This document shows positions 35,527-51,579 of a stretch of 64,000 nucleotides of DNA, piece after piece; positions within the stretch are counted from its first letter, which is position 1, and each line of letters begins with the position of its first letter. The translations under genes and the position numbers were made by a program. The DNA comes from an uncultured Marinilabiliaceae bacterium (lineage in GTDB: Bacteria; Bacteroidota; Bacteroidia; Bacteroidales; VadinHA17): assembly GCA_942491535.1 (NCBI GenBank), contig CALOBV010000007.1, positions 69,975 through 133,974 of the forward strand, written 5' to 3'. The notes under the pieces were generated by a model. That model was not told where the DNA came from. It worked only from the letters and a program-made list of their open reading frames with translations, and searched no databases.

Positions 35527-35758
35527 AATCAATCCTTTTAAGTTCAGCACATTATCAGAATAATATAAATTATATTCCGACACAATTCACGGCTACGAAA
35601 ATATCGAAATTATTAGAAAACTCAAAGATTATAGGGATTAATCAAACTGCCGTCTTTTGCTGGTTACCAATTAAGTATAGATATGAGCTGAATAATAAAA
35701 AATTAGTTATTAATTTCAAGGCTTATATTATTGTGGTTTTTTAATAAAAACAGATTCA

Positions 35759-36997
35759 ATGAAAATCATTGAAAGAGCCAGAGCAATTGGTCCTGCGGCC
35801 CTTGTTGCTGCAGCATTTATTGGACCGGGCACTATCACCACCTGTACCCTGGCCGGTGCAGGTTTTGGTTATACACTTCTATGGGCACTGCTTTTCTCAA
35901 TTATAGCAACAATGGTTCTCCAGGAAATGTCGGCTCGTCTTGGCCTGATTGGACAAATTGGCCTTGGTGAAGCACTACGAAAAGAATTCAAGACACCACT
36001 GGGTAAATTTATTACGGTCCTTCTGGTACTTATTGCTATAGCTCTTGGTAATGCAGCCTATGAAACTGGAAATATTTTAGGAGGAGCAATGGGGCTGGCA
36101 ACAATGACAGGTCGTGAATATATTAGCATTGGCAACCGGGATATTAATATATGGGGTCCGGTAATTGGCATTATTGCCTTTATTCTTTTATTCTCCGGAA
36201 GTTATAAAATAATTGAAAAGGGGCTGATAAGCCTGGTAATATTAATGAGTATTACATTTGTTACTACTGCCATACTGATTAAACCAGATATTTCTGCTGT
36301 GCTAAGAGGTGTTTTTATACCACATATTACTAAGGGATCGACACTTACAATAGTTGGTCTTATTGGAACAACGGTGGTTCCTTACAACCTGTTTCTTCAT
36401 GCTTCCCTGGTTAAGCAAAAATGGAAAGATACTACAATGATAGGAGCTGTCAGAACCGATAATCTTATCTCAATCGGTGCCGGCGGACTGATCTCAATGA
36501 CAGTAGTAATAACTGCTGCTGCTGCATTCTATGGCTCTGGTACAACGATTACAGGTGCATCTGATATGGCAGAACAGTTGGGTCCCCTGCTTGGAGGTGC
36601 TTCTTCATTTTTCCTGTCGCTGGGCTTGTTGTCTGCAGGTATTTCAAGTGCAATAACCGCGCCTCTTGCAGCTGCCTATGCAACTTCTGAGATCCTGGGC
36701 TGGAGTTCTGATATGAAATCGAGTAAATTCAGGTTAATATGGGTACTGGTATTATTAAGCGGCACCATATTCTCTGCAATAGGGTTCAAACCTGTAAGTG
36801 CGATATTTGTTGCTCAAATAGCAAATGGAATAATGCTTCCGTTTGTTGCAATTTTCCTACTTAAGGTTATGAATAATGGCAATATATTGGGCAAGATGAA
36901 AAATGGCTTAATAGCAAATACACTTGGCTCAATTGTAATTCTTGTTGCCCTGCTATTGGGAGTAAAGAGTATTATAACTGTATTCGGCATGATTTAA
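35759..36997 (+). CDS. NRAMP-family divalent metal transporter (YcsG-like context)
   Basis: 412 aa. Polytopic membrane protein with N-terminal GPAALVAAAFIGPGTITT and NRAMP-type helices. Immediately upstream of pxpABC. Confidence 0.8.
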   Translation: MKIIERARAIGPAALVAAAFIGPGTITTCTLAGAGFGYTLLWALLFSIIATMVLQEMSARLGLIGQIGLGEALRKEFKTPLGKFITVLLVLIAIALGNAAYETGNILGGAMGLATMTGREYISIGNRDINIWGPVIGIIAFILLFSGSYKIIEKGLISLVILMSITFVTTAILIKPDISAVLRGVFIPHITKGSTLTIVGLIGTTVVPYNLFLHASLVKQKWKDTTMIGAVRTDNLISIGAGGLISMTVVITAAAAFYGSGTTITGASDMAEQLGPLLGGASSFFLSLGLLSAGISSAITAPLAAAYATSEILGWSSDMKSSKFRLIWVLVLLSGTIFSAIGFKPVSAIFVAQIANGIMLPFVAIFLLKVMNNGNILGKMKNGLIANTLGSIVILVALLLGVKSIITVFGMI

Positions 36998-37007
36998 TAA
37001 TTATAAA

Positions 37008-37760
37008 ATGAAATACATAGACTTAAATGCTGACCTCGGTGAAGGTTGTGGTAACGACAGTGAAATACTGAAATATGTTAGTTCGGCTAATATTGCCTGC
37101 GGATTGCATGCCGGATCGCCGGGGATCATGAGAGATACTGTTAAGCTCTCCATAGAAAACGGTGTCTCTATCGGGGCCCATCCGGGTTATCCTGACCGCC
37201 CAGGTTTTGGCAGAAATAATATGAATTTTAACTACCACGAGTTAAAAGCTATACTTCTCTACCAGATAGGTGCTCTTGATGCCATAGTAAGATCAGAAGG
37301 AGCCAGACTAATTCATGTAAAGGCACATGGAGCACTTTATAATAGTGCGGCAAAAGATCCTGAAATAGCCAGGGCAGTTGTTCATGCAATAAAAGAAATC
37401 GACCCCGGACTAATTATTTTTGGTCCCTGTAGTTCGCAAATTGAGTTTGAATCAAAAAAAGAAAACATGGCCTTTTGCTCAGAGGTTTTTGCCGACCGTG
37501 CATATATGAACGATGGGGCCCTTGTACCAAGATCTCTTCCCGGGGCTATAATTAAGGATAAAGAATTATGCGCCAGCAGGACGCTCTCGATGATAAACGA
37601 CGGCTTTGTAATATCTCACAGCGGAGATACTGTAAAAATTGTTGCCGAAACAGTTTGCCTGCACGGAGATAATGACAAAGCCCTGGAATTTGCTAAACAT
37701 CTATATAACAGTCTGATAAACGACGGCATTAACATTGGTGTAAATAAGATAAAAGATTGA
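37008..37760 (+). CDS. pxpA: 5-oxoprolinase subunit A (LamB/YcsF family)
   Basis: 250 aa. IDLNADLGEG...ANIACGLHAG...GAHPGYPD motifs. Confidence 0.9.
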   Translation: MKYIDLNADLGEGCGNDSEILKYVSSANIACGLHAGSPGIMRDTVKLSIENGVSIGAHPGYPDRPGFGRNNMNFNYHELKAILLYQIGALDAIVRSEGARLIHVKAHGALYNSAAKDPEIARAVVHAIKEIDPGLIIFGPCSSQIEFESKKENMAFCSEVFADRAYMNDGALVPRSLPGAIIKDKELCASRTLSMINDGFVISHSGDTVKIVAETVCLHGDNDKALEFAKHLYNSLINDGINIGVNKIKD

Positions 37761-38503
37761 CCGAGCTAAAATTCATACCTGCTGGTAATTCTGCCCTGTT
37801 TTGCAGTATTGCAAAAGATATCAAACCTTCTGTTTCACAAAAGATTGTGACAATCCATAAGCTTATCGGTCAAAGCGGTATCAGGGGAGTAATAGAATCT
37901 GTACCTTCCTATACCGGCCTGATGATCTATTTTGACCCGCTTAAAATAGATTTTAAAGCGCTCGAAGAATTAGTTACAAAATTATACAATAAGGTTATTT
38001 CTGGTAATTCTAAAGTACTGAGCAGATTAATCAGAGTCCCGGTTTGTTACGAAAAAGAGTTTGGGCTGGATATAGAGATTGTGGCCAATCAATCAGGTTT
38101 AAGTAATGAAGAAGTTATCGAACTACACACCAGGCCTGAGTACCTGGTACATATGATCGGATTCACTCCCGGGTTTCCATATCTCGGAGGGCTCAGTAAA
38201 AAGCTTGAAACCCCTCGTAAGGCTGATCCACGCTTAAAAGTAAAGGCTGGCAGTGTTGGTATCGCAGGTATACAGACTGGTATATATCCAATAGAATCAC
38301 CTGGTGGGTGGCAAATAATTGGCAGAACACCTCTTGTTTTATTTAAGCCGGAAGCAAAAGAACCATTTCTCTTTAAAGCAGGTGATTACGTTATTTTCAA
38401 ATCTATTACGCTAACAGATTATTTTAATATTGGAGAAGCTGTCAGAAAAGGAATTTATAAACCTGAAATCTTGCTCGATTATGAAGGGAATCAGAATAGT
38501 TAA
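37757..38503 (+). CDS. pxpB: 5-oxoprolinase subunit B (KipI / allophanate hydrolase subunit 1 family)
   Basis: 248 aa with GFTPGFPYLGGL...AGSVGIAG motifs. 4-nt overlap with pxpA. The track start is non-ATG (TTG). Confidence 0.85.
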   Translation: MTELKFIPAGNSALFCSIAKDIKPSVSQKIVTIHKLIGQSGIRGVIESVPSYTGLMIYFDPLKIDFKALEELVTKLYNKVISGNSKVLSRLIRVPVCYEKEFGLDIEIVANQSGLSNEEVIELHTRPEYLVHMIGFTPGFPYLGGLSKKLETPRKADPRLKVKAGSVGIAGIQTGIYPIESPGGWQIIGRTPLVLFKPEAKEPFLFKAGDYVIFKSITLTDYFNIGEAVRKGIYKPEILLDYEGNQNS

Positions 38504-39458
38504 TCCGGGAATGCATTCCACTATCCAGGATAGTGGAAGAACAGGATTCAGGGAATATGGGCTGCCAGTTTCGGGGGTTATGGATATTAGATCATTCCAC
38601 CTTGCTAACTGGCTGGTTAGAAATGATAGGAATGAAGCATTAATAGAAACAACTTTCCCGGGTATTGTGATAGAGTTTCTCTCTACTACTATTTTCGCTA
38701 TTGCAGGAGGTGACATGTCACCGGAATTAAACGGGAAAAAAATACAGAACTGGAAATCATACAGGGCAAAATCTGGTATGCGCCTTGAATTAACCAGGCT
38801 GGGAAGCGGGTCAAGAGCATATATTAGTTTTTCAGGCGGATTCAGAATCGATCCTCAGCTTAATAGTATGTCGACCTATGTAAAAGGAAAACTTGGAGGA
38901 TATCGCGGAAGAGAACTCCGTAAGGATGACATTATTCCTCTATACCCATCAATACCATATTTATATAAGAGCCGAAAAGTACCTGATAGTATGATTCCGG
39001 AATATAAGACAGATGTGGATCTGAAAGTTGTTCCAGGAGTAAATTACGATTTATTCAGCCAGTATTCGATCGAAGAATTTCTAAAAGGAAAATTCACTGT
39101 TTCTAGCAGAAGTGACAGAATGGGACTGAGACTTGAAGGGAAAGAGATTATGCCCGAAACTGATAAACAAATACTTTCATACGGCATTCATCCCGGGACA
39201 ATCCAGGTTCCCGGCGATGGGAATCCAATTATTATGGGTATGGACTGCCAGACTATTGGAGGCTATCCTCAGATTGCAAACATAATAAGTACTGATTTAC
39301 CCAGGGTTGGGCAGCTTAAACCAGGTGATCAGATCAGTTTCAGAATGGTAACTCAGACAGAAGCTCTGGAGTTGCTGAAAATATATGATTTATCCAGTAA
39401 TAAATTATTTGGGATCTCCAGATCAGTTTGCACTGATTGCATTGAAAAACGCCGCTAA
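38481..39458 (+). CDS. pxpC: 5-oxoprolinase subunit C (KipA / allophanate hydrolase subunit 2 family)
   Basis: The track gives 38430. I prefer the ATG at 38481 (MKGIRIVNPGMHSTIQDSGR, the typical N-terminus). Also ...GTIQVPGDGNPIIMGMDCQTIGGYPQIA. Confidence 0.85.
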   Translation: MKGIRIVNPGMHSTIQDSGRTGFREYGLPVSGVMDIRSFHLANWLVRNDRNEALIETTFPGIVIEFLSTTIFAIAGGDMSPELNGKKIQNWKSYRAKSGMRLELTRLGSGSRAYISFSGGFRIDPQLNSMSTYVKGKLGGYRGRELRKDDIIPLYPSIPYLYKSRKVPDSMIPEYKTDVDLKVVPGVNYDLFSQYSIEEFLKGKFTVSSRSDRMGLRLEGKEIMPETDKQILSYGIHPGTIQVPGDGNPIIMGMDCQTIGGYPQIANIISTDLPRVGQLKPGDQISFRMVTQTEALELLKIYDLSSNKLFGISRSVCTDCIEKRR

Positions 39459-40772
39459 TTGTTTTTTAGCAGTTTATTCTTTTCGATCAGATATCTGAAA
39501 GGATAAATAATCCTTTCTATAAGACGCATATCCTGAGTGATGATCTCGGCTGTTCCAGACATATTCTGATTAAACTGCAGCTCTTTATCATAGTTTGTTA
39601 CAAGACCTCCTGGCAGGCTTACATCTACTACATAAACATCGTTGGTTGCAAGCTGTGAAATAGACTCCACAACGCCTTCTACAATTCCATACTCAAGGAA
39701 TGGATAAGCGCCGAGCTTTATCAGTACTTTCTGGCCGGCTTCAACTTCACCTGAGCGTCTCATAGAAAGTTCAACCTTGCCTATAATATGATTTTCTCCA
39801 TCGGGCACCACTGTCAGAACGATATCACCTTCCTGAACAAGCTGGTTTTTACCCCAGAAATTCGAAAATGTCACCCTGCCATCTATTGGTGATTTAATTA
39901 AATGCTTCATATACCAGAGTTCAAGTTCACCCTGAAGCTTTATACTCTCATTTTGAAAAAGGGTATAAAGTTTTCTTCTTTCCTCTTCTCTTGCTGCCTT
40001 AAAGTCCTCAAGGCTCTGGTACCTTGAAGCACGATCAATTAACCTTGATCTCCTATCCAGTCTAACCTGCTCTAAGAGGATCTTCTCATCATAGAATGAT
40101 CTTTTGGTATGTTCGAGTTCCTGCAATGACCTTACATCACTGGCGAATAGGGAGGAATCGCGTAAATATTCAGCCTCAACCAATTTTAGTTTTTCGATAT
40201 AAAGGGCTTCCTTATTCGCAAGTTGCTCCAGGTAATCATTGATGCCTGTAATTTCATCCTGGACTGCATTAATTTTCTTTCCGTAATAGTCGACTGTTAC
40301 ATGGTTGATATAGTTATCAAGACATGTTTTATAAAAAGAATAGTTTGCCCTTAGTTCACCCAGCTGAGGATTTTCAGGCCCGTGGCATTTCAGGACTCTC
40401 TTTATCCACCGAATTAATACCACCAATATTTTCTTCGAGCATATTACTTAACCATAGCACGCTTTCCAGATCGGCGGTAGTTTCGATTAATGCAAGATAT
40501 TCATCTTTATGTACCTGCTGGCCTTCTACCACGAACAAATTGTTAATCTGCCCTGAGATATGTGCCATCATAGAGGCCGGAGGATTGGAGGTGCTTATAA
40601 CTATTTTTCCACTTACAATATATGGATAACTTATTATCCAGGATGCAATCACAGCCATAACAAAAACAATTGCAACAGCACTTATCCCCCACCTCACAAC
40701 AGAGGAAGGCGGATTGCCAATAACTTCCTCTACCGGTGATGATTCTCTTATATCGTGTATTGCTTTGTTCAT
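39455..40772 (-). pseudogene. HlyD-family membrane-fusion protein (about 439 aa), frameshifted
   Basis: ORFs 40374..40772 (N-terminal TM plus lipoyl-like ...VSGKIVISTSNPPASMMAHISGQINNLFVVEGQQVHKDEYLALIE) and 39455..40426 (coiled coil plus beta-barrel) overlap in different frames. Both frames are open between about 40374 and 40445. A 3-nt gap separates it from the upstream ABC exporter gene. Confidence 0.75.
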
Positions 40773-40774
40773 AT

Positions 40775-42961
40775 CTAATTTCCCAGTTCAAGCTGGTTTT
40801 TTACCAGATTATAATAATGCCCCTTTAAAGATATTAGTTGATCATGTGATCCTGTTTCTACTATTCTGCCTTCATCAAGAACAATAATATTGTCGGCATT
40901 TTTAACTGTACTTAGCCTGTGTGCTACTATCAGTACAGTCTTTCCCCTATAAAATCTGATCAGGTTATCATTGATAAGCTTTTCATTATTTGCATCGAGC
41001 GAATTTGTTGCTTCATCAAAAAACAGAAACTCTGGATCTTTGTAAACAGACCTGGCAATTAATATTCTCTGTTTTTGACCCTGGCTCAGACCCTTCCCAT
41101 CAACTCCTATTTTACTGTTATATCCAAGTGGAAGAGATTCGAGGAACTTCCTGATATTAGCTACGTCAACGGATTTGATAAGTTTCTCCTGGTCGATGGT
41201 TTCAATTCCCGGGGCAATATTATACGCTATTGAATCAGGAAAGATAAACCCATCCTGCATAACCACACCGCATTTCTTCCTCCAGAGTTTCAGGCTAAGG
41301 TTACTTAGCATAGTATCACCAATCAATATTTCACCAGTTACCGGTTTATAAAATCCCAGAATCATTTTTAAGAGCGTAGTCTTGCCACTGCCGCTTGGTC
41401 CGACAATGGCAGTTACTTTATGGTGTGGAATATGCATATTGATATCCTTCAGCACCATAGGTGATCTCGGACCTTCATATTGAAACGAAAGGTTATTTAT
41501 ATAAATATCCTTCTCTGCAGGCAAATTTCTTACCTTCATATCCAGATCACTTTCTTCTTCATCCCTGGTATGAACCTCTGCAAGCCGGTTAAGACTCATC
41601 CTGGCATCCTGGGCAGTCCTGAAGAAACTAATTATCTGACCTACAGGCATATTAAGCTGACCTATAATAAACTGAACTGCCAACATCATACCAAGAGTAA
41701 TATCACCATTAATCACGGCGGTAGCAGCAATTACTGTAATAAGTAGATTGCTAACCTCAAGAATAAATTTTCCGCCAGCCTGCTGGTATTGAAAAAGGCT
41801 AAGCGATTTGACCTTGGTCTTAAACAACAGTGCCTGTAAATTTTCCCAGTCCCATCTCTTACTCATCTCACTCTGGGTCAACTTAATCTCCTGCATTCCA
41901 TTAATAATTTCGATCAGCTTGCTGTTGGTTGCAGATTGCTGGCTAAAGCGTTTATGATCGAGCCTGGCTCTCGATTTCATAAATACTGATACCCAGATTA
42001 TATAAAGCAAGGTGCCAGTAACAAAAAGCAAGAGTATCCTGTAATCGTAGATGGCCAGAACTATGCTGAATATTATTATATTAAAAAATGAGAAGAGGAC
42101 ATTTAAGGTAGAAGTGGTCATAAATGATTCAATCCTGTTATTATCCTCAATTCTTTGAAGTAAATCTCCAGTTAATTTGGTATCAAAGAATGAAACGGGC
42201 AAGGACATAAGCTTTGTCAGAAATCCGGATACAACCGAAATATTGACCCTGGTTCCGATATGCAGAAGCAGCCAGCTCCTTATAAAATCAACCGACATTC
42301 TGCCTATTATAAGGGCTAACTGGGCAAACAATATTACATATATAAAGCCAATATCACTGGTATTGATTCCTATATCAATAATAGACTGAGTAAGGAAGGG
42401 CAGGATGAGTTGAATAAAACTTCCAATAAGTAGCCCCAGAATCAACTGAAAAAAATATTTCCTGTAGATTTTTATGTACTTATACAAAAACTTAAAACCA
42501 TGCTTCTCGCTTTTATCATCATCACTGTCATAAAATTCGGGAGTAGGCTGGAGAATCAGAACAAGGCCCTGCTTTTCTCCTTCAAGCGATGTACTTGCCC
42601 AATCCTTTTCAAATTCCTGGCGCGAAATAGTAATCCTTCCAAGAGCAGGATCTGCAATAAAAACCTTATCGGATTTAATTTTATAAACTACAATAAAGTG
42701 CTTTTGCCTCCAGTGGACAATACATGGCAGCGGGCTTTCTTTGCTGAGCTTATCGAAGGGGATCCTTACTCCTATTGTTCTGAAGCCAATTTTCTCTGCA
42801 GCCTCTGACAATCCAAGAAAAGAAACTCCCTCCCTGGTTATATAGCTATATTCTCTCAGCTTATCAATCGAAATACTCCGGCCATAATATGCCGAAACCA
42901 TCTTTAGGCACGATGGTCCGCAATCCATTGCATCAGCCTGCTGAATAAAAGGAAAGGACAT
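40775..42961 (-). CDS. C39-peptidase-domain ABC exporter (double-glycine leader processing/export)
   Basis: The track gives 797 aa. I prefer the ATG at 42959-42961 (MSFPFIQQADAMDCGPSCLK...), giving 728 aa. C39 Cys context is DCGPSC and His context KHFIVVY. Six-TM domain, Walker A GPSGSGKTT, signature LSQGQKQR, Walker B LFFDEATN. Confidence 0.9.
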   Translation of the reverse strand: MSFPFIQQADAMDCGPSCLKMVSAYYGRSISIDKLREYSYITREGVSFLGLSEAAEKIGFRTIGVRIPFDKLSKESPLPCIVHWRQKHFIVVYKIKSDKVFIADPALGRITISRQEFEKDWASTSLEGEKQGLVLILQPTPEFYDSDDDKSEKHGFKFLYKYIKIYRKYFFQLILGLLIGSFIQLILPFLTQSIIDIGINTSDIGFIYVILFAQLALIIGRMSVDFIRSWLLLHIGTRVNISVVSGFLTKLMSLPVSFFDTKLTGDLLQRIEDNNRIESFMTTSTLNVLFSFFNIIIFSIVLAIYDYRILLLFVTGTLLYIIWVSVFMKSRARLDHKRFSQQSATNSKLIEIINGMQEIKLTQSEMSKRWDWENLQALLFKTKVKSLSLFQYQQAGGKFILEVSNLLITVIAATAVINGDITLGMMLAVQFIIGQLNMPVGQIISFFRTAQDARMSLNRLAEVHTRDEEESDLDMKVRNLPAEKDIYINNLSFQYEGPRSPMVLKDINMHIPHHKVTAIVGPSGSGKTTLLKMILGFYKPVTGEILIGDTMLSNLSLKLWRKKCGVVMQDGFIFPDSIAYNIAPGIETIDQEKLIKSVDVANIRKFLESLPLGYNSKIGVDGKGLSQGQKQRILIARSVYKDPEFLFFDEATNSLDANNEKLINDNLIRFYRGKTVLIVAHRLSTVKNADNIIVLDEGRIVETGSHDQLISLKGHYYNLVKNQLELGN

Positions 42962-43081
42962 AAATGAAAATATAGTAATATTATAATTAAGGTAAAGATA
43001 TTTATTATTTAAATCTAAGCAAGCCTGCAACCATAGGGAATGTAATCCGTAGACAAATGAATAGTATTTAGATGGAAATAG

Positions 43082-43089
43082 TATATTTG
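43082..43089 (+). promoter_or_regulatory. candidate -7 box TATATTTG for the sigma-factor gene
   Basis: Matches TAnnTTTG, 21 nt upstream of the GTG at 43110. I saw no clear -33 TTTG. Confidence 0.25.
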
Positions 43090-43109
43090 TTGAATAATCT
43101 TCATTAAAA

Positions 43110-43679
43110 GTGTTTAAAAAGCACTCAGATAAAATGCTGGTTGAGGGATTAAGAAAGGGGGATGACAAAACTCTTAACTACCTCTATAGTAATTATTTCA
43201 GTACTGTTAAATCGTATATTGTAAAGAATAGCGGTACTGAAGATGATGCCTATGATATATTCCAGGATGCCCTGATGGTCGTCTATAAGAAGTTCCAGCA
43301 TAATGGGGTTGAATTGACTTCTGACCTTAAAGCATATGTATTTGGTGTTGCCAGGAAGCTATGGAGTAACCAGCTAAGAACCAAGAAAGAAATTCCAATT
43401 CATGATTATAATGATATAATTGATGATTTCGAACTTGAAAAGCTTCTTGATATTCCGATAGAACAAATAGTACAAAGATCCTTCCTCAAACTACCTGAAG
43501 ACTATCAAAAGGTTCTTACCATGCACCTTGAGGGCTGTGATTATGAAGAAATCGCCAGGAAAATGTCTTACAAGAGTGCTACCTATGCCAGGAGAAAGAA
43601 GTACCTGTGTAAGGAGGAACTAATCAGAATAATCAAATCCGACCCCGATTATAAGGATTATGAAGATTTTGGTCTGTAG
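43110..43679 (+). CDS. ECF-like sigma-70 family RNA polymerase sigma factor
   Basis: 189 aa (GTG start; an alternative ATG lies at 43134). Region 2 is DAYDIFQDALMVVYKK...AYVFGVARKLW. Region 4 HTH is LPEDYQKVLTMHLEGCDYEEIARKMSYKSATYARRKKY. Confidence 0.8.
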   Translation: MFKKHSDKMLVEGLRKGDDKTLNYLYSNYFSTVKSYIVKNSGTEDDAYDIFQDALMVVYKKFQHNGVELTSDLKAYVFGVARKLWSNQLRTKKEIPIHDYNDIIDDFELEKLLDIPIEQIVQRSFLKLPEDYQKVLTMHLEGCDYEEIARKMSYKSATYARRKKYLCKEELIRIIKSDPDYKDYEDFGL

Positions 43680-46600
43680 TACCTTCTCCTTACATATATC
43701 AACGAAAGTATCACCAGTATGGTAAGTCCTATTGTATGCCTCTTATAAAAAATTGGCTCATCCTCGCCTAAAATTACCAGGGCACACCAGAAATAAGGGT
43801 GAGACCTTAGTTGATCGGCAGATCTGAGATATTTTTTCCTCGATTTTTTTAAGGCTCCGCTCTTTGAGTAACCTTGCTTTAAATTACTATAAAACGACTT
43901 AATAATCTCACTTGCTGAATAATCATCAACTTCCCATAAAGACATTACCACTGATGGTGAACCTGCATACATAAAACCCCTTGCCAGGCTAATAATTCCT
44001 TCTCCCGATTGTAGATATCCCGCCCCTGTATTACATGAGCTTAAGACTACCATCTTTGCGTTAAGATCAAGATTATAAATCTCATATGTATTGAGTAAGC
44101 CGTTTTCTATTGTGTCATTATTTTGAGCAAATACCATCTTGGATAGCATCGGTTGCCTGTCGTTAAGCAATGTGTGCATGGCGAGGTGAATAATCTTTTC
44201 ACTTGATGCCTCACTAACAAACCTTTGCTCGCTGGCCTGATTTTCAAGATAAAGCTGGCCACCAAGCAGGCTACTGATATATATAGCCTCCTCTTTTGCT
44301 CCCGGAATATTATTAAGAAGACCTCTTTCCATTTGCCTGGACAGAAGCAATGAATCTGAATCCAGTGTTGAAGAATATGTAGGTGCAAATACCAGGGCGG
44401 GGTTAAAGAAGCTTTTCCCCTTTCCTTCTGATTCTATAAGGAGAGAAGCTGAATAGGTGTAAATAATTTCAAATTCCTTAAAGAGATAATTAATATCACG
44501 ATAATTTATTGGCCTAACCCCTATTGTATCGCTAATCAAAGCCTCAAACGGAATATATGAAAGTATATCATCTGCTGCAATTACGAGATTTTTTGAAATC
44601 AGATACGGTTTAATCGGCTCGATAAGAAGCTTATATAAATAATGCCCATTTTTCACTATTCTTTTAAATTGTGATCGTGCACCAGTCTCAATTGCCGGGT
44701 TTGTAATATCTGAGCGAAACTCTCTGACTATATCCCTGGTAACAGAATCGATAGAAGTATTTAGGAACTCGCAACCTTTCCTGTTGAAAATAAATGTATA
44801 TAGTATTGAATCTGACAGAAAGAATTCAACAAAATTTCTATCCCGTCCAAGATAATTCCTAACATCCTTGCAGTATGCAACTTTATCCTCATGTTTTAAA
44901 CTGTAATACCTGGGATAATCTCTCTCGAATAGATGAATCAATGAATCGCGCTTAATTACGGCCCCGGTACGTTCCTCTTCATATAAATTTACAAGTGTTG
45001 CATCAGCATTACCCGAATTTGTCTCGTTGTATAATTTGTCAGTTAATTCCTTTATATAGTGATCCAGTTCTTTTTCAATGCCTACAAGGTTTTCAGGTAC
45101 ATGAAACTCCATAGCCTGTACTTCCCTTGTTGAAGAGAGTAAGGTTGAAGCCTTGCTCTTCTCAGAGTACCTGAATGCCATATTAAGATAGGCGGGGTCA
45201 TTATCATATTTGTATTTTTCGGATGCCAGCCATATGGCATTGTCCCACAAGAAGTCGAATCGTCCGGTAATCTGCAAGCGGCTTTCTTCACCGGAAAGAT
45301 CAATCTTAACAGAATCAAGAATAGAAATCGCTGCATCAATATCCTTAAGTGCTTTATCGAGATATTCGATTGATTTATCCTGCAAATATTTCTCTCTATA
45401 TATATTACTTCTGAAATCATAAATAAATAATAACCTCGGGGGGCTAAAATATTCTCCGGATCCAAGAACTTCGTTATACAAACTCAGGGCTGCATCAAAT
45501 TCTCCCTTCTCAACCAGCACATTAGCGAGACCTCGCTTTATGTCATTGACTAATACAATTCCATACCGGCCCTCGTTTGTTTTATTATATAAGTCTGAAT
45601 AAATATTGTAAGCGGAACTGATATCATTTATATATAATCTATAGTAAGAAGCAAGATTTTCCCTGGCGCTGAGGTATCTTTCGGAATCTGTACCATAATT
45701 GTCGTAACAGTACTTAACAGCTTTTTTAAATATTTCTAACGATTCTTCATATCTTCCAATCTTGGCCAGGAAGTGACCGTAATTTGTATAATATACATCT
45801 CCATCGTCAGGACTATCTTTCATAGACTCCAGCACCTCAATCATTTTTTCATAGCTTTTTATTGCATTCAGGGTATCGCCTGTCATTGCATTTGCTACAC
45901 TAAGACCATTGGTAATATATAGAAGCATAATCATATCATTATGATCATATTCTATCTGCCTGGTTTCCGCTACCTGGTACATTGACCTTGCATTATTATA
46001 ATCACCCCTGGCGCCATAATAAACGCCAAGATTATAATATAGCAGCCCCAGCGAACTAAATTCTCTGCTTGATTTTCCTACTATTTCAATTGCTCTCAGG
46101 GCCGACTCCCTTGCATTATTATATTCGCCCATATCAATATATACCGCCGACAAATTGGCAAGTGGCTTAATTAGATAGTGAGAGCTATCCCCGTAATATA
46201 TCTCTCGTAACTTAATGCTTCTTTTCAAAAAATCGGCCCCTTCAATGTACCTGTCGAGCCCATATATGGATAAACCGAGTTGAGATATAACAGTGCATAA
46301 GCCTGCCGTATCGGGCTTTTCTGATAGCTGGTAGGATTCTATAGCCCTACTATAGTATCGTTCGGCTTCAATATATTCTCGATGATTATAACTATATCCA
46401 CCCAGATACCTGTTAATCCTTGCAAATAGATCAGGAGATAATCCCGGCCTCGTCTCAACAAAATCGAGGAGGTAATTATACATCTCAGTAGACCGATCAG
46501 AGTAAGCATCCCTGTTAAGTTCACTTGCAAACAAATCAAGTAAAAGATTGATGTCGATATCGCCGGTATCTGAGTATACCATTATATCGTTACTTATACT

Positions 46601-46687
46601 ATTATTTACTTCCAATGCATATGCATTATCACTTATAGGTAAAATAAAGAATAATGCCCCTGCTATTAACTTAAAATACTTTTCCAT
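43658..46687 (-). CDS. exported, C-terminally anchored TPR-CHAT (caspase-fold) protease
   Basis: 1009 aa. Signal peptide MEKYFKLIAGALFFILPISDNAYA. About 450 aa of TPR-like repeats. The C-terminal CHAT domain has His context IIHLAMHT and Cys context VVLSSCNTGAGY. A terminal TM (TIGLTILVILSLIYV) is followed by a basic RRRYYRPK tail. Confidence 0.85.
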   Translation of the reverse strand: MEKYFKLIAGALFFILPISDNAYALEVNNSISNDIMVYSDTGDIDINLLLDLFASELNRDAYSDRSTEMYNYLLDFVETRPGLSPDLFARINRYLGGYSYNHREYIEAERYYSRAIESYQLSEKPDTAGLCTVISQLGLSIYGLDRYIEGADFLKRSIKLREIYYGDSSHYLIKPLANLSAVYIDMGEYNNARESALRAIEIVGKSSREFSSLGLLYYNLGVYYGARGDYNNARSMYQVAETRQIEYDHNDMIMLLYITNGLSVANAMTGDTLNAIKSYEKMIEVLESMKDSPDDGDVYYTNYGHFLAKIGRYEESLEIFKKAVKYCYDNYGTDSERYLSARENLASYYRLYINDISSAYNIYSDLYNKTNEGRYGIVLVNDIKRGLANVLVEKGEFDAALSLYNEVLGSGEYFSPPRLLFIYDFRSNIYREKYLQDKSIEYLDKALKDIDAAISILDSVKIDLSGEESRLQITGRFDFLWDNAIWLASEKYKYDNDPAYLNMAFRYSEKSKASTLLSSTREVQAMEFHVPENLVGIEKELDHYIKELTDKLYNETNSGNADATLVNLYEEERTGAVIKRDSLIHLFERDYPRYYSLKHEDKVAYCKDVRNYLGRDRNFVEFFLSDSILYTFIFNRKGCEFLNTSIDSVTRDIVREFRSDITNPAIETGARSQFKRIVKNGHYLYKLLIEPIKPYLISKNLVIAADDILSYIPFEALISDTIGVRPINYRDINYLFKEFEIIYTYSASLLIESEGKGKSFFNPALVFAPTYSSTLDSDSLLLSRQMERGLLNNIPGAKEEAIYISSLLGGQLYLENQASEQRFVSEASSEKIIHLAMHTLLNDRQPMLSKMVFAQNNDTIENGLLNTYEIYNLDLNAKMVVLSSCNTGAGYLQSGEGIISLARGFMYAGSPSVVMSLWEVDDYSASEIIKSFYSNLKQGYSKSGALKKSRKKYLRSADQLRSHPYFWCALVILGEDEPIFYKRHTIGLTILVILSLIYVRRRYYRPKSS

Positions 46688-46952
46688 ATTTTATCTTCCC
46701 TTCCCTGCATGTGTAAGATCCATACCTGTCACAAAGTAAAAAAAATAATAATAAGTTCTATCCGATAGGAATTTATTAAATAATTCATAAAAAAAAACAT
46801 GATCGTATTGCTTTAATTAACAAGTATTTAACTTGAAGGCAAATTTTTTTTATAAAAAAACATTCTTTTTCGTTGTCACAAATAAGGTTTTCATTACATG
46901 TACTTATGTAACATAATAAACAACCCGATTTAACAAACAAAAATTTAAAACG

Positions 46953-47105
46953 ATGAAAAACCTGAATCAAGAAATCAAATTTGAAAACTTCAACGAATTT
47001 TTACTGGCAGACGAAGAACTTATTAACGTACGCGGAGGCGACGGAAATGAAGCAGGAGAAAAAGGAACTGTTGTTCCTCCTGTTGTAGCTGATCCTGAAA
47101 TCTAG
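46953..47105 (+). CDS. double-glycine-leader precursor peptide (50 aa)
   Basis: Translated by hand: MKNLNQEIKFENFNEFLLADEELINVRGG / DGNEAGEKGTVVPPVVADPEI, with stop TAG at 47103-47105. The leader fits L(-12) E(-8) L(-7) V(-4) G(-2) G(-1). It is too short for the ORF track. It lies in a 594-nt gap between CHAT-locus genes. Confidence 0.65.
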   Translation: MKNLNQEIKFENFNEFLLADEELINVRGGDGNEAGEKGTVVPPVVADPEI

Positions 47106-47302
47106 ATTTTTTTAAAGAAGTATTCCTGCTTTAGTGGAATTATTGATGTATTGTAGTGCTTAAGCTATAAGAAGCTTGTTATGCACGAACGAATTACGCC
47201 CTGGAAATATTTTCAGGAATAAATTCGCACGAACTTCGGAATATCGAAAGACTAATTTAGTCTAAAAGACATTGAATATAATTGCGTGAAATACATATAG
47301 TT

Positions 47303-48049
47303 ATGGAAAATATTGAATTTACCAGGTTTATTGAGCGCTACCTGGACAACAAAATGCAAGCATCTGAAAGAAGATGGTTCGAAAAAGAGATGGAAGGTAA
47401 TCTCTGGCTCAAAAAAGAACTGGAACTGAGGCGTAAGGCAAACGAAATAGCTTCTAATTTCGATGCTGTTAAGATCAGGGAAAAGCTACAGAGAGCTGAA
47501 ATGCTACATAGGAAAGAATCTTCTATTAGTAAGGCTGTTAAGAAAGTACCGGTTAACTATGCTGCCATCTTTCTTGGTCTTATAATTATCAGCACTCTGA
47601 TTATTCTCTCAGGCAACAGTTTTGATCTGAGATCATATACAAGTGATTCTGTAGATAATTATACAGCCCTTACAATACACAGATCCGGAGATGTAAATGT
47701 TCCCCGTCAACTATCAATGGGAATGCAACTCTACCGGGAAGGAAAATATAATGAAGCTATTCAGCAATTTGAATTATTGGTTGATGGCAATCAATCTACC
47801 ATACAGTCTAACTTCCTCAATGGTATGGCGAATATGCAAATAAGCGAATACAACAAGGCTATTAAATCGTTTGACGTGGTAATTGAACATAACGATAATA
47901 TGTTCATCGAAGACGCATCATATTACCTGGGCCTCTGCTACGTAAATATTGAAGAAAATGAGAGGGCAAAGGCAATATTGGAGGGTATAATATCCAGTGA
48001 AAGCCGCTACAGGAAGGATGCAAAAAAATTATTAAAAAGCATAGACTAA
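47303..48049 (+). CDS. single-pass membrane TPR protein, anti-sigma-factor-like
   Basis: The track start 47282 is TTG. I prefer the ATG at 47303 (MENIEFTRFIERYLDNKMQASERRWFEKEMEGN, a pattern resembling anti-sigma N-domains but lacking the zinc ligands). One TM (YAAIFLGLIIISTLIILSG) is followed by an extracytoplasmic TPR region. Confidence 0.5.
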   Translation: MENIEFTRFIERYLDNKMQASERRWFEKEMEGNLWLKKELELRRKANEIASNFDAVKIREKLQRAEMLHRKESSISKAVKKVPVNYAAIFLGLIIISTLIILSGNSFDLRSYTSDSVDNYTALTIHRSGDVNVPRQLSMGMQLYREGKYNEAIQQFELLVDGNQSTIQSNFLNGMANMQISEYNKAIKSFDVVIEHNDNMFIEDASYYLGLCYVNIEENERAKAILEGIISSESRYRKDAKKLLKSID

Positions 48050-48091
48050 TACTAGTTACTACTACTTAAACTACTACTATCCAGACAGAAA

Positions 48092-48931
48092 ATGTTTGAT
48101 TCTGAAAACAAATACAGAGAACAAATAAGTAACAATTCCGGCAAAGGGGATGTTATAGGTAGTGAAAGTATTTCATGCACAGATTCAAATATTTTGTCTT
48201 GCCCGAAAATTTTGACGGGCCTATCACATGAGGTGAGAACCTATATGAATTCTATAGTGGCTTTCTCATTTCTCCAGAATTCAGACAATTGCAATATAAA
48301 TGACAGACAGGAATACACTGATCATATTTTAAATTCATGTGACCAGCTAATTACACTGTTTGATAATTTTCTTGATTCAGCTTTAATCGACGCTGAGAAA
48401 CCCAGCAGTAATCTCAAAAAAAGAGAACTGACGGATATTCTTCAGCACCTTGCTATTGAATTGAACAGTTCACTGGCAAAATTTGACAAAAGTAATGTTT
48501 CACTCGTCCTGGAAGAACAAACATACAGGGACGAAGTATTTATTGATGAGGAAAAGATATTTCGGGTTATCAAAAACCTCTTCCATAACGCTGTGGAGCA
48601 TACAACATCGGGTTACATTAAATTAGGTTACAAAAAGGTAGATAGCCAGGTTGTTTTTTATGTTATAGATTCAGGAAATGGCTATCACCTGAACAAGGAA
48701 TTGCTGGAGGCTGATAACCTCACCTCCTACCTTGTTAAGAACAACAGCACATTTACAACAGTAGGTTTAATCCTGGCCAACAAGCTTATCGAGAGTATGA
48801 ACGGAAAGTTCTGGATTGAACCTAATGGAGTTAATGGTACGGGCATGTATTTTTCAATTCACTACCGTAAAGCCTTTGATCCCCAGGAAAATGAGGATAT
48901 AAATAAGTTCAAATCCAGAATCGCTATATGA
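48092..48931 (+). CDS. cytoplasmic histidine kinase without sensor or TM domain
   Basis: 279 aa. H-box LSHEVRTYMNSI appears after only about 40 residues. N-box NLFHNAVEHT, G1 DSGNG, G2 GVNGTG. No response regulator is adjacent. Confidence 0.8.
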   Translation: MFDSENKYREQISNNSGKGDVIGSESISCTDSNILSCPKILTGLSHEVRTYMNSIVAFSFLQNSDNCNINDRQEYTDHILNSCDQLITLFDNFLDSALIDAEKPSSNLKKRELTDILQHLAIELNSSLAKFDKSNVSLVLEEQTYRDEVFIDEEKIFRVIKNLFHNAVEHTTSGYIKLGYKKVDSQVVFYVIDSGNGYHLNKELLEADNLTSYLVKNNSTFTTVGLILANKLIESMNGKFWIEPNGVNGTGMYFSIHYRKAFDPQENEDINKFKSRIAI

Positions 48932-48982: not shown

Positions 48983-49015
48983 AAAGAGTGCCCGAGCGGC
49001 ACTCTTTTCTTTTAT
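48983..49015. terminator. bidirectional intrinsic terminator
   Basis: A perfect 10-bp stem AAAGAGTGCC (48983-48992) / GGCACTCTTT (48998-49007) with loop CGAGC. It is T-rich on the plus side (TTCTTTTAT) and lies between convergent genes. Confidence 0.75.
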
Positions 49016-50956
49016 GGCAATTTAACAGTTCCCGTAATCCGTATCTCTGTCCTTCTATTTCTTCTCATACCTTCCCGGGTATTATTATCAGAAACAGGCA
49101 TTGTAGCACCAAAACCCTTATAGTTTATCCTCCCCGAATCAATCCCTTTTGAAATAAGAAAGTCTTTAACCGATTCGGCCCTGTTTTGAGAAAGGATCTG
49201 GTTATGGCTATCAGATCCGGAAGAATCAGTATGGCCCCCAATCTCAATTATAATAGTTTCATTTTTTACCAGGAGGTCGTACAACTTATTAAGCTCAATA
49301 AGTGATTCGCTTAGCAGCTCCCATGAATCTGTTTCGAAGAAAACATTATATAGCGTCATCATTTCTCCAACCCTTATAGGGCTCAATCCAACCCGCACAA
49401 TAAAAGGTTCGGCAACACTGTGCTCTCCTTCAAGAAAAAAGCTTTCAGAAAAAAACAAATATTTGTCTTTATTTACATTAAGCCCGTAGTTTTTGCCTGG
49501 CGGTAAGACAGATAAGAAATTCACCATTATCATTTGTTGATGATATCAGAACGGTCTTTTTATTAATTAGATCGGTTAATTCATAACGTGCCTTTAATTT
49601 TCTTCCGGAAATCTTATCATATACTGTTCCCTTTATATACGATACAGGATCTGGTCTAAGTTGATCCGGGAGATTAAAATAGTAAAGATCCCTGCCCTTT
49701 CCCGGGTTTATCTCCGACGAATAATAAGCTCTATCGCCTGAACCATTAATAATCAACCCCATTTCATCTGTCTGAGTATTAATAGGATATCCAAGATTCT
49801 CGACCTCTGTCCATGTAGTATCATCAATCATCCTCGACATATACAGATCCAGACCACCCATAGAAGGTCTTCCATTTGATGAAAAATACAATGTCAATCC
49901 ATCAAAATGTATAAAGGGCGACATCTCATCCCCAGCTGTGTTGATATCGCCACCCAGGTTTACCGGTTCTGTCCAGTTTCCGGATTCTGACTTCTTGCTA
50001 TACCAGATATCCATTCCGCCATATCCACCTGGCCTGTTACTGACGAAAAACAACTTTTGACCGTCTGATGCCAGTGATGGCTGCGACTCCCAGTACTTTG
50101 TATTAATTGGATTACCGATATTCATTCCTGATATCCACCCCCTTGATGTTGAGGCAGAATAATATATATCACATCCACCCTTGCCATCCTCCCTGTTACA
50201 GGCAGTAAAGTACATATACTGACCTCCGGCAGCAAGTGACAGGGCACCTTCGTTGTAAGGGGTGTTCAGCGGGTACCCGATATTTTTGGCTGGCAAAAGC
50301 ACATTATCTTTCATCTCGCTGAAATAAAAATCCTCCTGGTACCTTATGCCATCAATATTTCTGGCTCCTTCAGCTATCTGTCGCGTAAAAAAGAAAAGGC
50401 TATTATCAACTGTAATAGCAGGCCAGTACTCATCGTACTCGGTATTAATCGAATCGCCCAGGGATACCGGAAAAAACGTAACGGGATGTTGTTTTGCCTC
50501 TATTGCAAATTCACAGTTTATCAGGTACTTCCGCGATTTCTTTATCAGCTTATCTGATTCTGGTCCGGTTTCCAGGAAAGACCTGAAAAACCTGGCAGCC
50601 CTGCTATAATCTCCAAGCATAAATTCAACCTCTCCAAGGCTGTACATTGCCGGAACAAAAAACAGAGAGTCGATCTCGATAACTCTTCTGAAATTATTGG
50701 CCGACTCATTATATTTTTTTTGATCCTTATATAGCTCTGCAAGTAGAAGAAAGGCCTCAATAAAATCATTATCCCTGCCCGTAGCTTCAAGGAGATGATC
50801 TTCGGCAGTTTTGTAATCGACAAAATCGTAAGCTCTTTTCCCTTCTGTATATGATTTAAGTGCACGATTCGATCTGGTATGCAGATTCTGTCCCGAAGCC
50901 TGGAGTGAAAAAACTGAAACTATTAATAATACAAATATTGTTCTTATACCCCTCAT
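49012..50956 (-). pseudogene. TPR / TolB-like (PD40) beta-propeller / OmpA-domain protein (about 648 aa), frameshifted
   Basis: ORFs 49478..51001 and 49012..49533 overlap in different frames. The junction ...NDNGEFLICL|PPGKNYGLNVNK lies at minus-strand CTTACCGCC (plus 49499-49507). The C-terminal OmpA motif is GHTDSSGSDSHNQILSQNRAESV...NRRTEI. The likely start MRGIRTIF (ATG 50954-50956) overlaps the queE stop (TAATG). Confidence 0.75.
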
Positions 50957-51579
50957 TACGGTATTTTCATATACTTGTGGCTCTGTAAAGATATCCTCCA
51001 CTTATTATTTTTCAGAATATAATCAACTATCGTGCCTATTATACTATCAAACCGGCTCCATTCGGCTTGCAGAAATAATTCACATGAATCTTGCACTCTT
51101 AAACTCATCTTTTCTGCCCAAATAAAATCTTCACTCTTCAGTATTATGACCTTAAGTTCACTTGCCCTTAGTTCAATATTTCCAACAGGTGGAGCATTTA
51201 TTTTGGGCGACAAGCAAATCCAGTCCCATTCTCCGGATAAATGATAGGCCCCTGAAGTTTCCAGATAAGTTTTAACCTTATGCTCCTTTAATAATCTACA
51301 CAGGGGGTTCATATCCCACATTAATGGTTCTCCCCCTGTAATAACTACAGAGTCTGCTCCGGCATCAAGAACATGCTGAACTATTTCCCTTACCTCAACA
51401 AGGGGATGAATATCAGGATTCCATGTGTATCTTGAATCACACCAGCTACACCCTACATCACATCCTCCTATCCTAAGGAAATAAGCAGCTCTGCCGGTAT
51501 GATAGCCTTCTCCCTGGAGGGTATAGAAATGTTCAACCAGCGGAAGCTTTTCTCCATTTTTTATTACTGTTTCCTTCAT
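50956..51579 (-). CDS. queE: 7-carboxy-7-deazaguanine synthase (radical SAM)
   Basis: 207 aa. EHFYTLQGEGYHTGRAAYFLRIGGCDVGCSWCDSRYTW is a QueE-type cluster motif and N-terminus. Confidence 0.8.
   Translation of the reverse strand: MKETVIKNGEKLPLVEHFYTLQGEGYHTGRAAYFLRIGGCDVGCSWCDSRYTWNPDIHPLVEVREIVQHVLDAGADSVVITGGEPLMWDMNPLCRLLKEHKVKTYLETSGAYHLSGEWDWICLSPKINAPPVGNIELRASELKVIILKSEDFIWAEKMSLRVQDSCELFLQAEWSRFDSIIGTIVDYILKNNKWRISLQSHKYMKIP

Follow-up and report, generated by a model that had tools for sequence, protein, structure and literature searches.

We describe a module of seven genes in a 64,000-nucleotide (64-kb) stretch of DNA from an uncultured Marinilabiliaceae bacterium (contig CALOBV010000007.1 of assembly GCA_942491535.1), referred to hereafter as the window. 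The genes code for a HlyD-type adaptor, an ABC exporter with a C39 peptidase domain, a sigma factor of the extracytoplasmic function (ECF) type, a TPR-CHAT protein, a short peptide with a double-glycine (GG) leader, a transmembrane (TM) TPR protein and a soluble histidine kinase (Table 1). They form a conserved unit whose recurrence goes far beyond chance. We interpret the module as an ECF sigma circuit autoinduced by a peptide, with a split triad resembling DdvA (sigma factor, anti-sigma factor and TPR-CHAT protease) at its core, that is, as envelope signalling by which cells would sense their own secreted peptide, and we put the probability of this reading at roughly one half. An original prediction, made from the nucleotide sequence alone, had proposed a signalling module of this kind; the list of open reading frames (ORFs) together with Pfam and NCBIfam scans of the window genes agrees with it on the positions and domains of all seven.

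Conservation of the gene set

The TPR-CHAT protein has only two close database relatives (loci L001 and L002), and synteny there says little because the flanking genes are conserved as well. A profile search of GTDB species-representative genomes with the TM-TPR protein gave 37 loci, all in Bacteroidales metagenome-assembled genomes (MAGs) labelled Rikenellaceae, Marinilabiliaceae or unclassified Bacteroidales; every carrier found so far is an uncultured MAG. The same module, including a GG-leader ORF, is present at 37/37 of these related genome loci and on about 30 metagenome contigs, in at least three different genomic contexts, so the synteny on which the original prediction depended does hold outside the window. 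In tblastn comparisons the same order appears in essentially every sufficiently long locus: a leftward pair of exporter and HlyD genes, a rightward sigma gene converging on a leftward CHAT gene, and a rightward series of peptide, TM-TPR and kinase genes. This order is kept in about 30 genome loci, with identities that fall to 25–29% for the TM-TPR protein, 27–44% for CHAT, 31–77% for the sigma factor and 23–60% for the kinase.

The loci in other contexts are the most informative about which genes belong together. At L035, L038 and L042 and on the metagenome contigs L085, L093 and L095 the neighbours are entirely different, and the sigma, CHAT, peptide, TM-TPR and kinase genes are still found together; the exporter lies on the far side of the kinase gene in L035, L085 and L095 and is absent nearby in L038. 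More divergent is L003, where the CHAT protein is 28% identical, a GG peptide gene (encoding MRKEINWSALLDDKLTDEDMIMIRGG before the cleavage site and DAEEDPNAPIIK after it) is divergent from the CHAT gene, and the TM-TPR gene converges on the latter. At L049, a GG peptide gene stands upstream of a gene for a 507-aa TM-TPR relative, opposite a gene for a TPR protein with a signal peptide. Distant CHAT homologs also stand beside sigma/anti-sigma pairs, on the Marinimicrobia contig L004, the Desulfococcaceae contig L044 and in L047; for some others (L045, L046 and L048) a sigma gene was not found nearby. The triad of an ECF sigma factor, an anti-sigma factor composed of an anti-sigma domain (ASD), a TM helix and TPRs, and a periplasmic TPR-CHAT protein is widespread, and the Bacteroidales module is a rearranged version of this triad with peptide, exporter and kinase added.

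The TM-TPR protein as a probable anti-sigma factor

The 248-aa TM-TPR protein is very probably an anti-sigma factor, because its homologs in distant relatives form operons that run from a sigma gene through the homolog to a CHAT gene; the label "anti-sigma-like" that it had been given thereby gains a footing. In these relatives (L110–L131, found in metagenomes; GC content of the loci 34–69%) the homolog comes directly after a sigma gene in 20/21 loci, and among the approximately 14 with enough sequence, 11 have a TPR-CHAT gene next to it; in the window, the anti-sigma gene is 3.6 kb away from the sigma gene and in a separate operon. The sigma and anti-sigma genes of L110 overlap by 8 nt, and the CHAT protein encoded there has a signal peptide and a C-terminal anchor. 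The homolog in L121 carries a zinc motif, KHFFDCERC (H-x3-C-x2-C; zf-HC2 E-value 0.0056), and its periplasmic part aligns with the window family at an hhalign probability of 97% (E-value 5e-11).

An AlphaFold2 (AF2) model of the window protein consists of helices at residues 6–14, 20–32 and 34–72, a TM helix at 86–102, a disordered linker and three periplasmic TPRs. The predicted topology, with a cytoplasmic three-helix module, one TM segment and an extracytoplasmic domain, is the layout of a class I anti-sigma factor. Foldseek searches with this model returned TPR matches only, in which the periplasmic TPR domain resembles YbgF, BamD, IpgC and SycD. In the family alignments, conservation is highest over the N-terminal 50 or so residues of the protein, and an exhaustive profile search with this N-terminal module yielded 598 clusters at 50% identity. 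The module is also joined to other periplasmic domains (P0226, P0230) and occurs in tandem-repeat versions, and in P0180 the matching segment passes the Pfam zf-HC2 model at 26.8 bits (cut-off 22.2). Within the linker, an otherwise variable and disordered segment, an Arg (Arg127 in the window) is conserved in at least 90% of members; it is retained even in the high-GC relative L121 (EY.P....R[SG]) and replaced by Met in L110.

Some relatives of about 500 aa (P0094, P0102, P0103 and similar proteins) have three or four cytoplasmic N-terminal modules in tandem, with the TM helix and a TPR domain of the same kind behind them. Among these relatives, the one in L049 (945–2468) has its own GG-leader peptide, with …NEIKGG before the cleavage site and YGRDADVLVDPDKR after it, and a GCGTCACATTTT element upstream.

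A TPR-CHAT protein with the features of a periplasmic protease

The catalytic residues of the CHAT domain, His838 and Cys885, are invariant in 34/34 family members and are found in the distant homologs as well. In Bacteroidales, an N-terminal signal sequence is present in nearly all members, as is a C-terminal TM helix with a K/R-rich tail behind it. We predict from this that most of the protein resides in the periplasm, the location that had been proposed for it, and is held at the inner membrane. For the AF2 model (mean confidence score, pLDDT, 77.5), the best PDB matches in Foldseek were the cryo-electron microscopy structures of DdvA (8rw5/8rot, E-value 1.6e-14), followed by the craspase protein Csx29 and by separase. 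It took a fold search to find the DdvA match, since a search of the PDB with the CHAT sequence gave TPR proteins only. On these grounds the CHAT protease looks active and periplasmic, and by analogy with DdvA it could serve as the site-1 protease that acts on the anti-sigma factor.

The short cytoplasmic tail behind the membrane anchor (encoded at 43658–43700) is itself conserved, reading RYYYR(S) or RKRRYS depending on the clade, which hints at a contact in the cytoplasm.

Sigma factor and promoters

The sigma factor scores 52.5 bits against TIGR02937 (cut-off 42.9) and has a full-length match in E. coli RpoE (PDB 1or7; 1.6e-8, residues 4–159). Its 189 residues hold the r2 and r4_2 domains that define an ECF (group IV) member of the sigma-70 family.

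The module has two kinds of promoter. A bipartite motif, GTCACAAA-N13-ACATGTA, preceded by a T-rich stretch, lies 40–70 nt upstream of the start codon of the peptide gene (about 50 nt in the window) and is near-invariant across the main clade in an alignment of 36 loci. It occurs once in the 64-kb window, where 0.08 matches are expected, and 33 loci have exactly one copy each, in every case ahead of the peptide ORF. In the group whose sigma factor is most divergent (about 37% identity), a variant of the motif, GGTGACA...GGAAC, takes its place. The second kind is the Bacteroidetes housekeeping type, whose −7 box has the consensus TAnnTTTG. In an alignment of the divergent sigma/ABC region from 28 loci, this box is found upstream of the sigma gene in 27/28 and upstream of the ABC gene in 28/28, as against just 2/36 for the peptide gene; the counts cover the sigma, ABC and peptide genes, the starts of the CHAT ORFs being uncertain. 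These contrasting promoter types suggest that the sigma factor and exporter would be made constitutively and that the operon of peptide, anti-sigma and kinase genes would be under specialised control, which may be exerted by this sigma factor. A non-housekeeping promoter in front of the operon fits autoinduction. Upstream of the sigma genes of the distant triads, a search for a common −35 element yielded no more than GTGACA matches here and there and, in L110, a single bipartite site of similar kind, too weak to count as evidence.

The double-glycine peptide and its exporter

The cleavage region of the 50-aa precursor reads ...LINVRGG followed by DGNEAGEKGTVVPPVVADPEI, the latter being the predicted mature 21-mer. 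With a net charge of −4 and no Cys, it is as acidic and Cys-free as first described. A homologous small ORF lies 330–650 nt upstream of the TM-TPR gene in 37/37 genome loci and is likewise present in the metagenome loci; its conservation, which the original prediction had staked its case on, thus extends to all the related loci, with a canonical double-glycine leader and with GS in place of GG at the cleavage site in one of the 37. Among 40 leader sequences, L-12, R-3 and G-2 are invariant, position −4 is V or I in 40/40, and E-8 (39/40) and M-7 (38/40) are nearly invariant. To judge by its residues, the leader is of the classic double-glycine type.

The cores behind these leaders are 9–22 aa long (median 17), with 39 distinct sequences among the 40. 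Their net charge ranges from 0 to −6, they contain 22% Pro, and Cys is present in 3/40. The C-terminal residue is Ile in 33/40, and the core ends are clade-specific, with ...PPVTEPEI in one clade and ...PPIKI in another; conservation of such a motif within each clade suggests a conserved receptor. The peptide has no matching Pfam or NCBIfam model. Being short, acidic, Pro-rich and mostly Cys-free, the cores appear to fit a ligand better than a bacteriocin, which agrees with the earlier preference for a pheromone.

Domain scans with Pfam and NCBIfam found no immunity gene and no gene for modifying a ribosomally made, post-translationally modified peptide (RiPP) within 39455–48931, as the original prediction had held, and the nearby radical-SAM gene, two genes away at 50956–51579, is QueE-like. 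A bacteriocin or RiPP cluster was rejected as an explanation on these absences and on the acidic, mostly Cys-free cores.

The exporter likely starts at Met69 of its ORF (position 42964), which gives a protein of 729 aa, compared with 728 aa for the orthologs. Its Pfam domains are Peptidase_C39 (3e-40), ABC_membrane (2.7e-27) and ABC_tran (1.4e-30), and the C39 domain has its catalytic Cys, in the motif AMDCGPSC. A C39 peptidase with this Cys, a six-TM ABC domain and a nucleotide-binding domain together define a peptidase-containing ABC transporter (PCAT), the class to which the exporter belongs. Against NCBIfam TIGR01193 the exporter scores 423 bits (cut-off 524), and its TIGR03796 match is strong yet also below the cut-off, so that it is not an equivalog of either named family. 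Identity among exporters of the related loci is 53–91%. A gene for a HlyD-type partner adjoins the exporter gene, and a GG-leader ORF is present 4 kb off in every locus. The leftward HlyD and C39-ABC genes of the original prediction therefore stand in position and domains, with two amendments: the start of the ABC gene has to be corrected, and the HlyD gene is frameshifted in the window.

The orphan kinase

The kinase consists of HisKA and HATPase_c domains and has neither a sensor domain nor a TM segment, in agreement with its first description as sensorless. It is encoded downstream of the anti-sigma gene in 34 loci, and its H-box, N-box and G1 box are conserved. It is missing from the related modules L003 and L049 and is hence not universal. 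Of all parts of the model the kinase, which may be an output branch of the circuit, is the least secure.

In the divergent L035 type the G2 box is intact (GLGLGLS). Further conserved motifs of the kinase are IL(S/N)CP before HisKA and SRIAI at the C-terminus. At the clade-B loci L026–L040 a stand-alone receiver protein of about 130 aa is encoded beside a GroES-like gene, 7–8 kb downstream of the kinase gene, and a related receiver gene lies inside the peptide operon of L003 (3060–3437); such a stand-alone receiver could be what the orphan kinase pairs with. Converging on the module in the second genomic context is a gene for a very large membrane histidine kinase with multiple PAS domains (1080–1102 aa; L035 15390–18698, L038 9717–12959).

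Comparison with known systems

The closest relative by fold, DdvA of the Myxococcus DdvA/DdvS pair, is a fused anti-sigma-TPR-CHAT protein for whose CHAT domain a site-1 cut in the juxtamembrane linker was proposed, with RseP acting afterwards (PMC11506125). Its role in cleavage is still a hypothesis, which according to the authors can be tested only once the activating signal has been found, and fused proteins of this kind were reported only from Myxococcota and from one Comamonas species (PMC11506125). Shared with DdvA are an ECF sigma factor under a single-pass anti-sigma factor and a periplasmic TPR-CHAT part of separase/craspase architecture with a His-Cys dyad. Whereas DdvA joins a zinc-binding anti-sigma domain (ZASD), a TM segment and TPR-CHAT in one polypeptide, the window divides them between two proteins, one with ASD, TM segment and three TPRs and the other with signal peptide, TPR-CHAT and TM segment. 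Unlike DdvA, the window anti-sigma factor is without zinc ligands and has no CBASS or CRISPR regulon nearby, and the module additionally takes in a GG-leader peptide along with a C39-ABC/HlyD exporter and a kinase.

In craspase, of type III-E CRISPR systems, the TPR-CHAT protein Csx29 cleaves Csx30 and so relieves the inhibition of the ECF-type CASP-sigma (PMC10028731). The likeness lies in a TPR-CHAT protein acting on the inhibitor of an ECF-type sigma factor, as is proposed here, and in the fold (TM-score 0.5–0.58, target-normalised). Craspase differs in being cytoplasmic and activated by RNA through Cas7-11, with no membrane, peptide or exporter involved. In the E. coli DegS-RseA-RseP-sigmaE pathway, a site-1 cut made after recognition of a C-terminal peptide motif is followed by an intramembrane site-2 cut that frees the sigma factor (PMC10028731). 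Here the likeness is a single-pass anti-sigma factor and the match of the window sigma factor to RpoE; however, DegS has an HtrA/PDZ fold in contrast to the caspase-like CHAT/TPR fold of the window protein, and its activators are the tails of misfolded porins in contrast to a dedicated, exported gene product.

The peptide half of the module recalls ComC/ComAB/ComDE, BlpC and plantaricin A of Gram-positive bacteria, where a C39-ABC transporter and an accessory protein cleave and export a GG precursor, the peptide gene is autoinduced, and the pheromone is received by a membrane histidine kinase that has a response regulator as its partner. Compared with ComCDE or Agr, the window kinase has no TM segment or sensor and its regulator is not linked; the likely receptor would be a periplasmic TPR domain that feeds an ECF pair, in a diderm. 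In actinomycetes, the secreted ribosomal peptides of the lantibiotic feed-forward ECF pairs MibX/MibW (microbisporicin) and PspX/PspW (planosporicin) are thought to inactivate a membrane anti-sigma factor, upon which the ECF sigma factor, once free, drives the gene cluster of the peptide. Those peptides, however, are heavily modified antibiotics with immunity genes from another phylum, and a CHAT protease is not involved. Full-text literature searches combining "CHAT domain" with sigma factors gave only DdvA and CRISPR-protease work and two unrelated transcriptome studies. For Bacteroidetes, full-text searches found no work that ties ECF sigma factors to GG peptides or PCATs, and the ECF reclassification paper does not mention CHAT. 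Where the original prediction knew of no characterised system of this design, DdvA/DdvS (PMC11506125) and craspase (PMC10028731) do provide precedents. Every part has one; the combination, and the split triad with it, appear undescribed.

Proposed mechanism and alternatives

We envision that housekeeping-type promoters would supply the sigma factor, the CHAT protein and the C39-ABC/HlyD exporter. The C39 domain would cut the 50-aa precursor behind Gly-Gly during export, and the acidic, Pro-rich peptide, ending in ...PEI or ...PIKI, would accumulate and return to, or stay in, the periplasm, where one of the two TPR domains would bind it. Binding would activate or redirect the CHAT protease to make a site-1 cut in the disordered juxtamembrane linker of the anti-sigma factor, with Arg127 as the candidate site, and intramembrane proteolysis would then free the sigma factor. 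The freed sigma factor would transcribe the operon of peptide, anti-sigma and kinase genes from the GTCACAAA-N13-ACATGTA promoter, with positive feedback through the peptide and negative feedback through the anti-sigma factor, and the sensor-less kinase would act as an output on a response regulator encoded elsewhere. We infer export and cleavage of the peptide, the identity of the TPR receptor, cutting of the anti-sigma factor by CHAT, use of the promoter by the sigma factor and the role of the kinase.

A narrower proposal, which we hold only tentatively and with the balance of probability against it, is that an unmodified, PCAT-exported peptide of 9–22 aa is the activating ligand of a periplasmic TPR-CHAT site-1 protease. 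The module would then be the first peptide-pheromone system of Bacteroidota and a peptide-gated branch of an undescribed, multi-phylum split triad, of which DdvA would be the fused form. To our knowledge, no dedicated peptide signalling has been characterised in Bacteroidota, to which the autoinduction circuit, if true, would extend it. For DdvA, the one periplasmic TPR-CHAT anti-sigma system that has been studied, the activating signal is unknown; here, one operon codes for both the anti-sigma factor and a candidate ligand. Since this candidate, a short, unmodified peptide, is accessible to synthesis, the question of TPR-CHAT as a site-1 protease becomes directly testable; as all carriers are uncultured MAGs, such work would need heterologous reconstitution.

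Several observations weigh against the autoinduction circuit. The N-terminus of the putative anti-sigma factor found no match in profile searches of Pfam and the PDB, an hhalign comparison with a zinc-binding (ZAS) anti-sigma factor is in register at a non-significant probability of 0.1, and the window protein has E, N and L in place of the zinc ligands H, C and C. The bipartite motif could be the binding site of a transcription factor instead of an ECF promoter. On the export side, the window HlyD gene is broken into two ORFs (40374–40772, 132 aa, and 39455–40426, 323 aa) by a 1-nt insertion near 40383, and the cluster has no gene for an outer-membrane channel; the HlyD orthologs are intact at 438 aa, and the single-base gap is visible in the alignment with L001. 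On the output side, the G2 box of the kinase is degenerate in the main clade (TVGLILA), and tblastn found no receiver-domain gene within the 64-kb window. Two further points concern the comparative evidence. About 33 loci share the flanking genes DUF349, OmpA-PD40/PorE-like, QueE and NamZ, so that much of the synteny is simple vertical inheritance, and the distant triads have no GG peptide, which implies that the triad works without one and that the peptide could be output rather than input.

The peptide-free distant triads are the main fact in favour of an account in which the triad senses some other envelope or external cue and then secretes a peptide that acts on other cells, in the manner of an interference or bacteriocin-like peptide, or on the environment, with no autoinduction. 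The placement of the peptide gene behind a special promoter agrees with such an account, and 39 distinct cores at 40 loci would also fit an arms race. We nevertheless consider it unlikely, if worth keeping in view: cores of 9–22 aa with a charge of 0 to −6, rich in Pro and mostly free of Cys, with no immunity or modification gene, do not resemble the bacteriocins that are known, peptide and anti-sigma factor are co-transcribed, and the PPVTEPEI and PPIKI endings, conserved within their clades, point to a conserved receptor. The same co-transcription can be turned round, since peptide and anti-sigma factor in one operon might both be negative regulators. The peptide would then be a securin-like pseudosubstrate or inhibitor of CHAT, or a competitor for the anti-sigma TPR domain, and would keep the sigma factor off in homeostatic negative feedback; the TPR-CHAT fold is, after all, common to separase, which securin holds inactive (PMC11506125). 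The peptide cores, though, bear no sequence resemblance to the anti-sigma linker, and a dedicated ATP-driven exporter would be an uneconomical way to deliver an inhibitor to one's own periplasmic protease. We know of no precedent for an exported inhibitor of this sort and think such a role improbable.

Another idea is that CHAT is not the site-1 protease and that the anti-sigma factor is released in a conventional way, for instance by a protease of the DegS or Prc type or by a change of conformation once its own TPR domain binds the peptide, leaving CHAT as a co-receptor, a scaffold or a protease for other substrates, for example one that processes the exported peptide further. The anti-sigma factor does have a TPR domain of the peptide-binding type (like IpgC, SycD and YbgF), and cleavage by the CHAT of DdvA is likewise a hypothesis. 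The adjacency of anti-sigma and CHAT genes across phyla, the invariant catalytic dyad and the conserved Arg in the anti-sigma linker speak for a direct cut, and we allow the idea a small chance. We regard as very improbable that two unrelated units, one of exporter and substrate and the other of sigma factor, anti-sigma factor, CHAT and kinase, merely lie side by side through vertical inheritance in one Bacteroidales clade. The syntenic housekeeping flanks are what one would expect of such neighbours, but in every locus the peptide ORF is part of the anti-sigma operon and follows its special promoter; L035, L085 and L095 keep all parts in a second context with the exporter moved, and in L003 and L049, where the surroundings differ, a peptide still accompanies CHAT/TPR and anti-sigma genes.

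Locus layout and neighbouring genes

Table 1. Features of the module in the window (positions counted from the first nucleotide of the window)
Feature	Position	Strand	Basis
HlyD-family periplasmic adaptor	39455..40772	-	Pfam HlyD_3, Biotin_lipoyl_2; NCBIfam type_I_hlyD
C39-peptidase ABC exporter	ORF 40775..43168, likely 40775..42964	-	Peptidase_C39, ABC_membrane, ABC_tran
Divergent intergenic region, sigma/ABC	42965..43109	.	TAnnTTTG −7 boxes for both genes
ECF-type sigma factor, 189 aa	43110..43679	+	Sigma70_r2, Sigma70_r4_2, TIGR02937
TPR-CHAT protein, 1009 aa	43658..46687	-	CHAT 3e-54 and TPRs
Bipartite promoter-like motif, GTCACAAA-N13-ACATGTA	46875..46902	+	alignment of 36 loci
Double-glycine leader peptide, 50 aa	46953..47105	+	homologous ORFs in related loci
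TM-TPR protein (very probable anti-sigma factor), 248 aa	47303..48049	+	TPR matches only in domain scans
Soluble histidine kinase, 279 aa	48092..48931	+	Pfam HisKA and HATPase_c
Intrinsic terminator at the end of the peptide/anti-sigma/kinase operon	48983..49007	+	10-bp stem (5 GC pairs), then T-run

By their coordinates, the convergent sigma and CHAT genes overlap tail to tail by 22 nt, just as first reported. The strong terminator reported behind the kinase gene is likewise there, as a stem of 10 bp followed by a run of T, and it probably works in both directions. For the TM-TPR gene, comparison with homologs makes ATG 47303 the likely start, which gives the homolog length of 248 aa, rather than TTG 47282. 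The RNA fold of the spacer between the peptide and anti-sigma genes is not distinctive (z = −1.6), for which reason we claim no attenuator there.

Relative to intact orthologs, single-base indels split three genes of the window, namely HlyD, the OmpA-PD40 (CHU_0125/PorE-like) gene, where the indel is near 49498 (49478–49533) inside a run of A, and a DUF349-like gene (33413–35583). These indels are either assembly errors or the marks of real pseudogenes. Between the DUF349 gene and HlyD, at 35759–39458, lie an Nramp transporter gene and a LamB_YcsF / CT_C_D / CT_A_B set (5-oxoprolinase-like). This insertion occurs in the window lineage and L008 only, and most related loci are without it. On the other side of the module, a TPR-PD40-OmpA gene (49012–51001) converges on the kinase gene; its best matches, below the cut-offs, are CHU_0125 and the PorE families of the type IX secretion system. 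This neighbour is syntenic in 32 loci, as are the other housekeeping neighbours.

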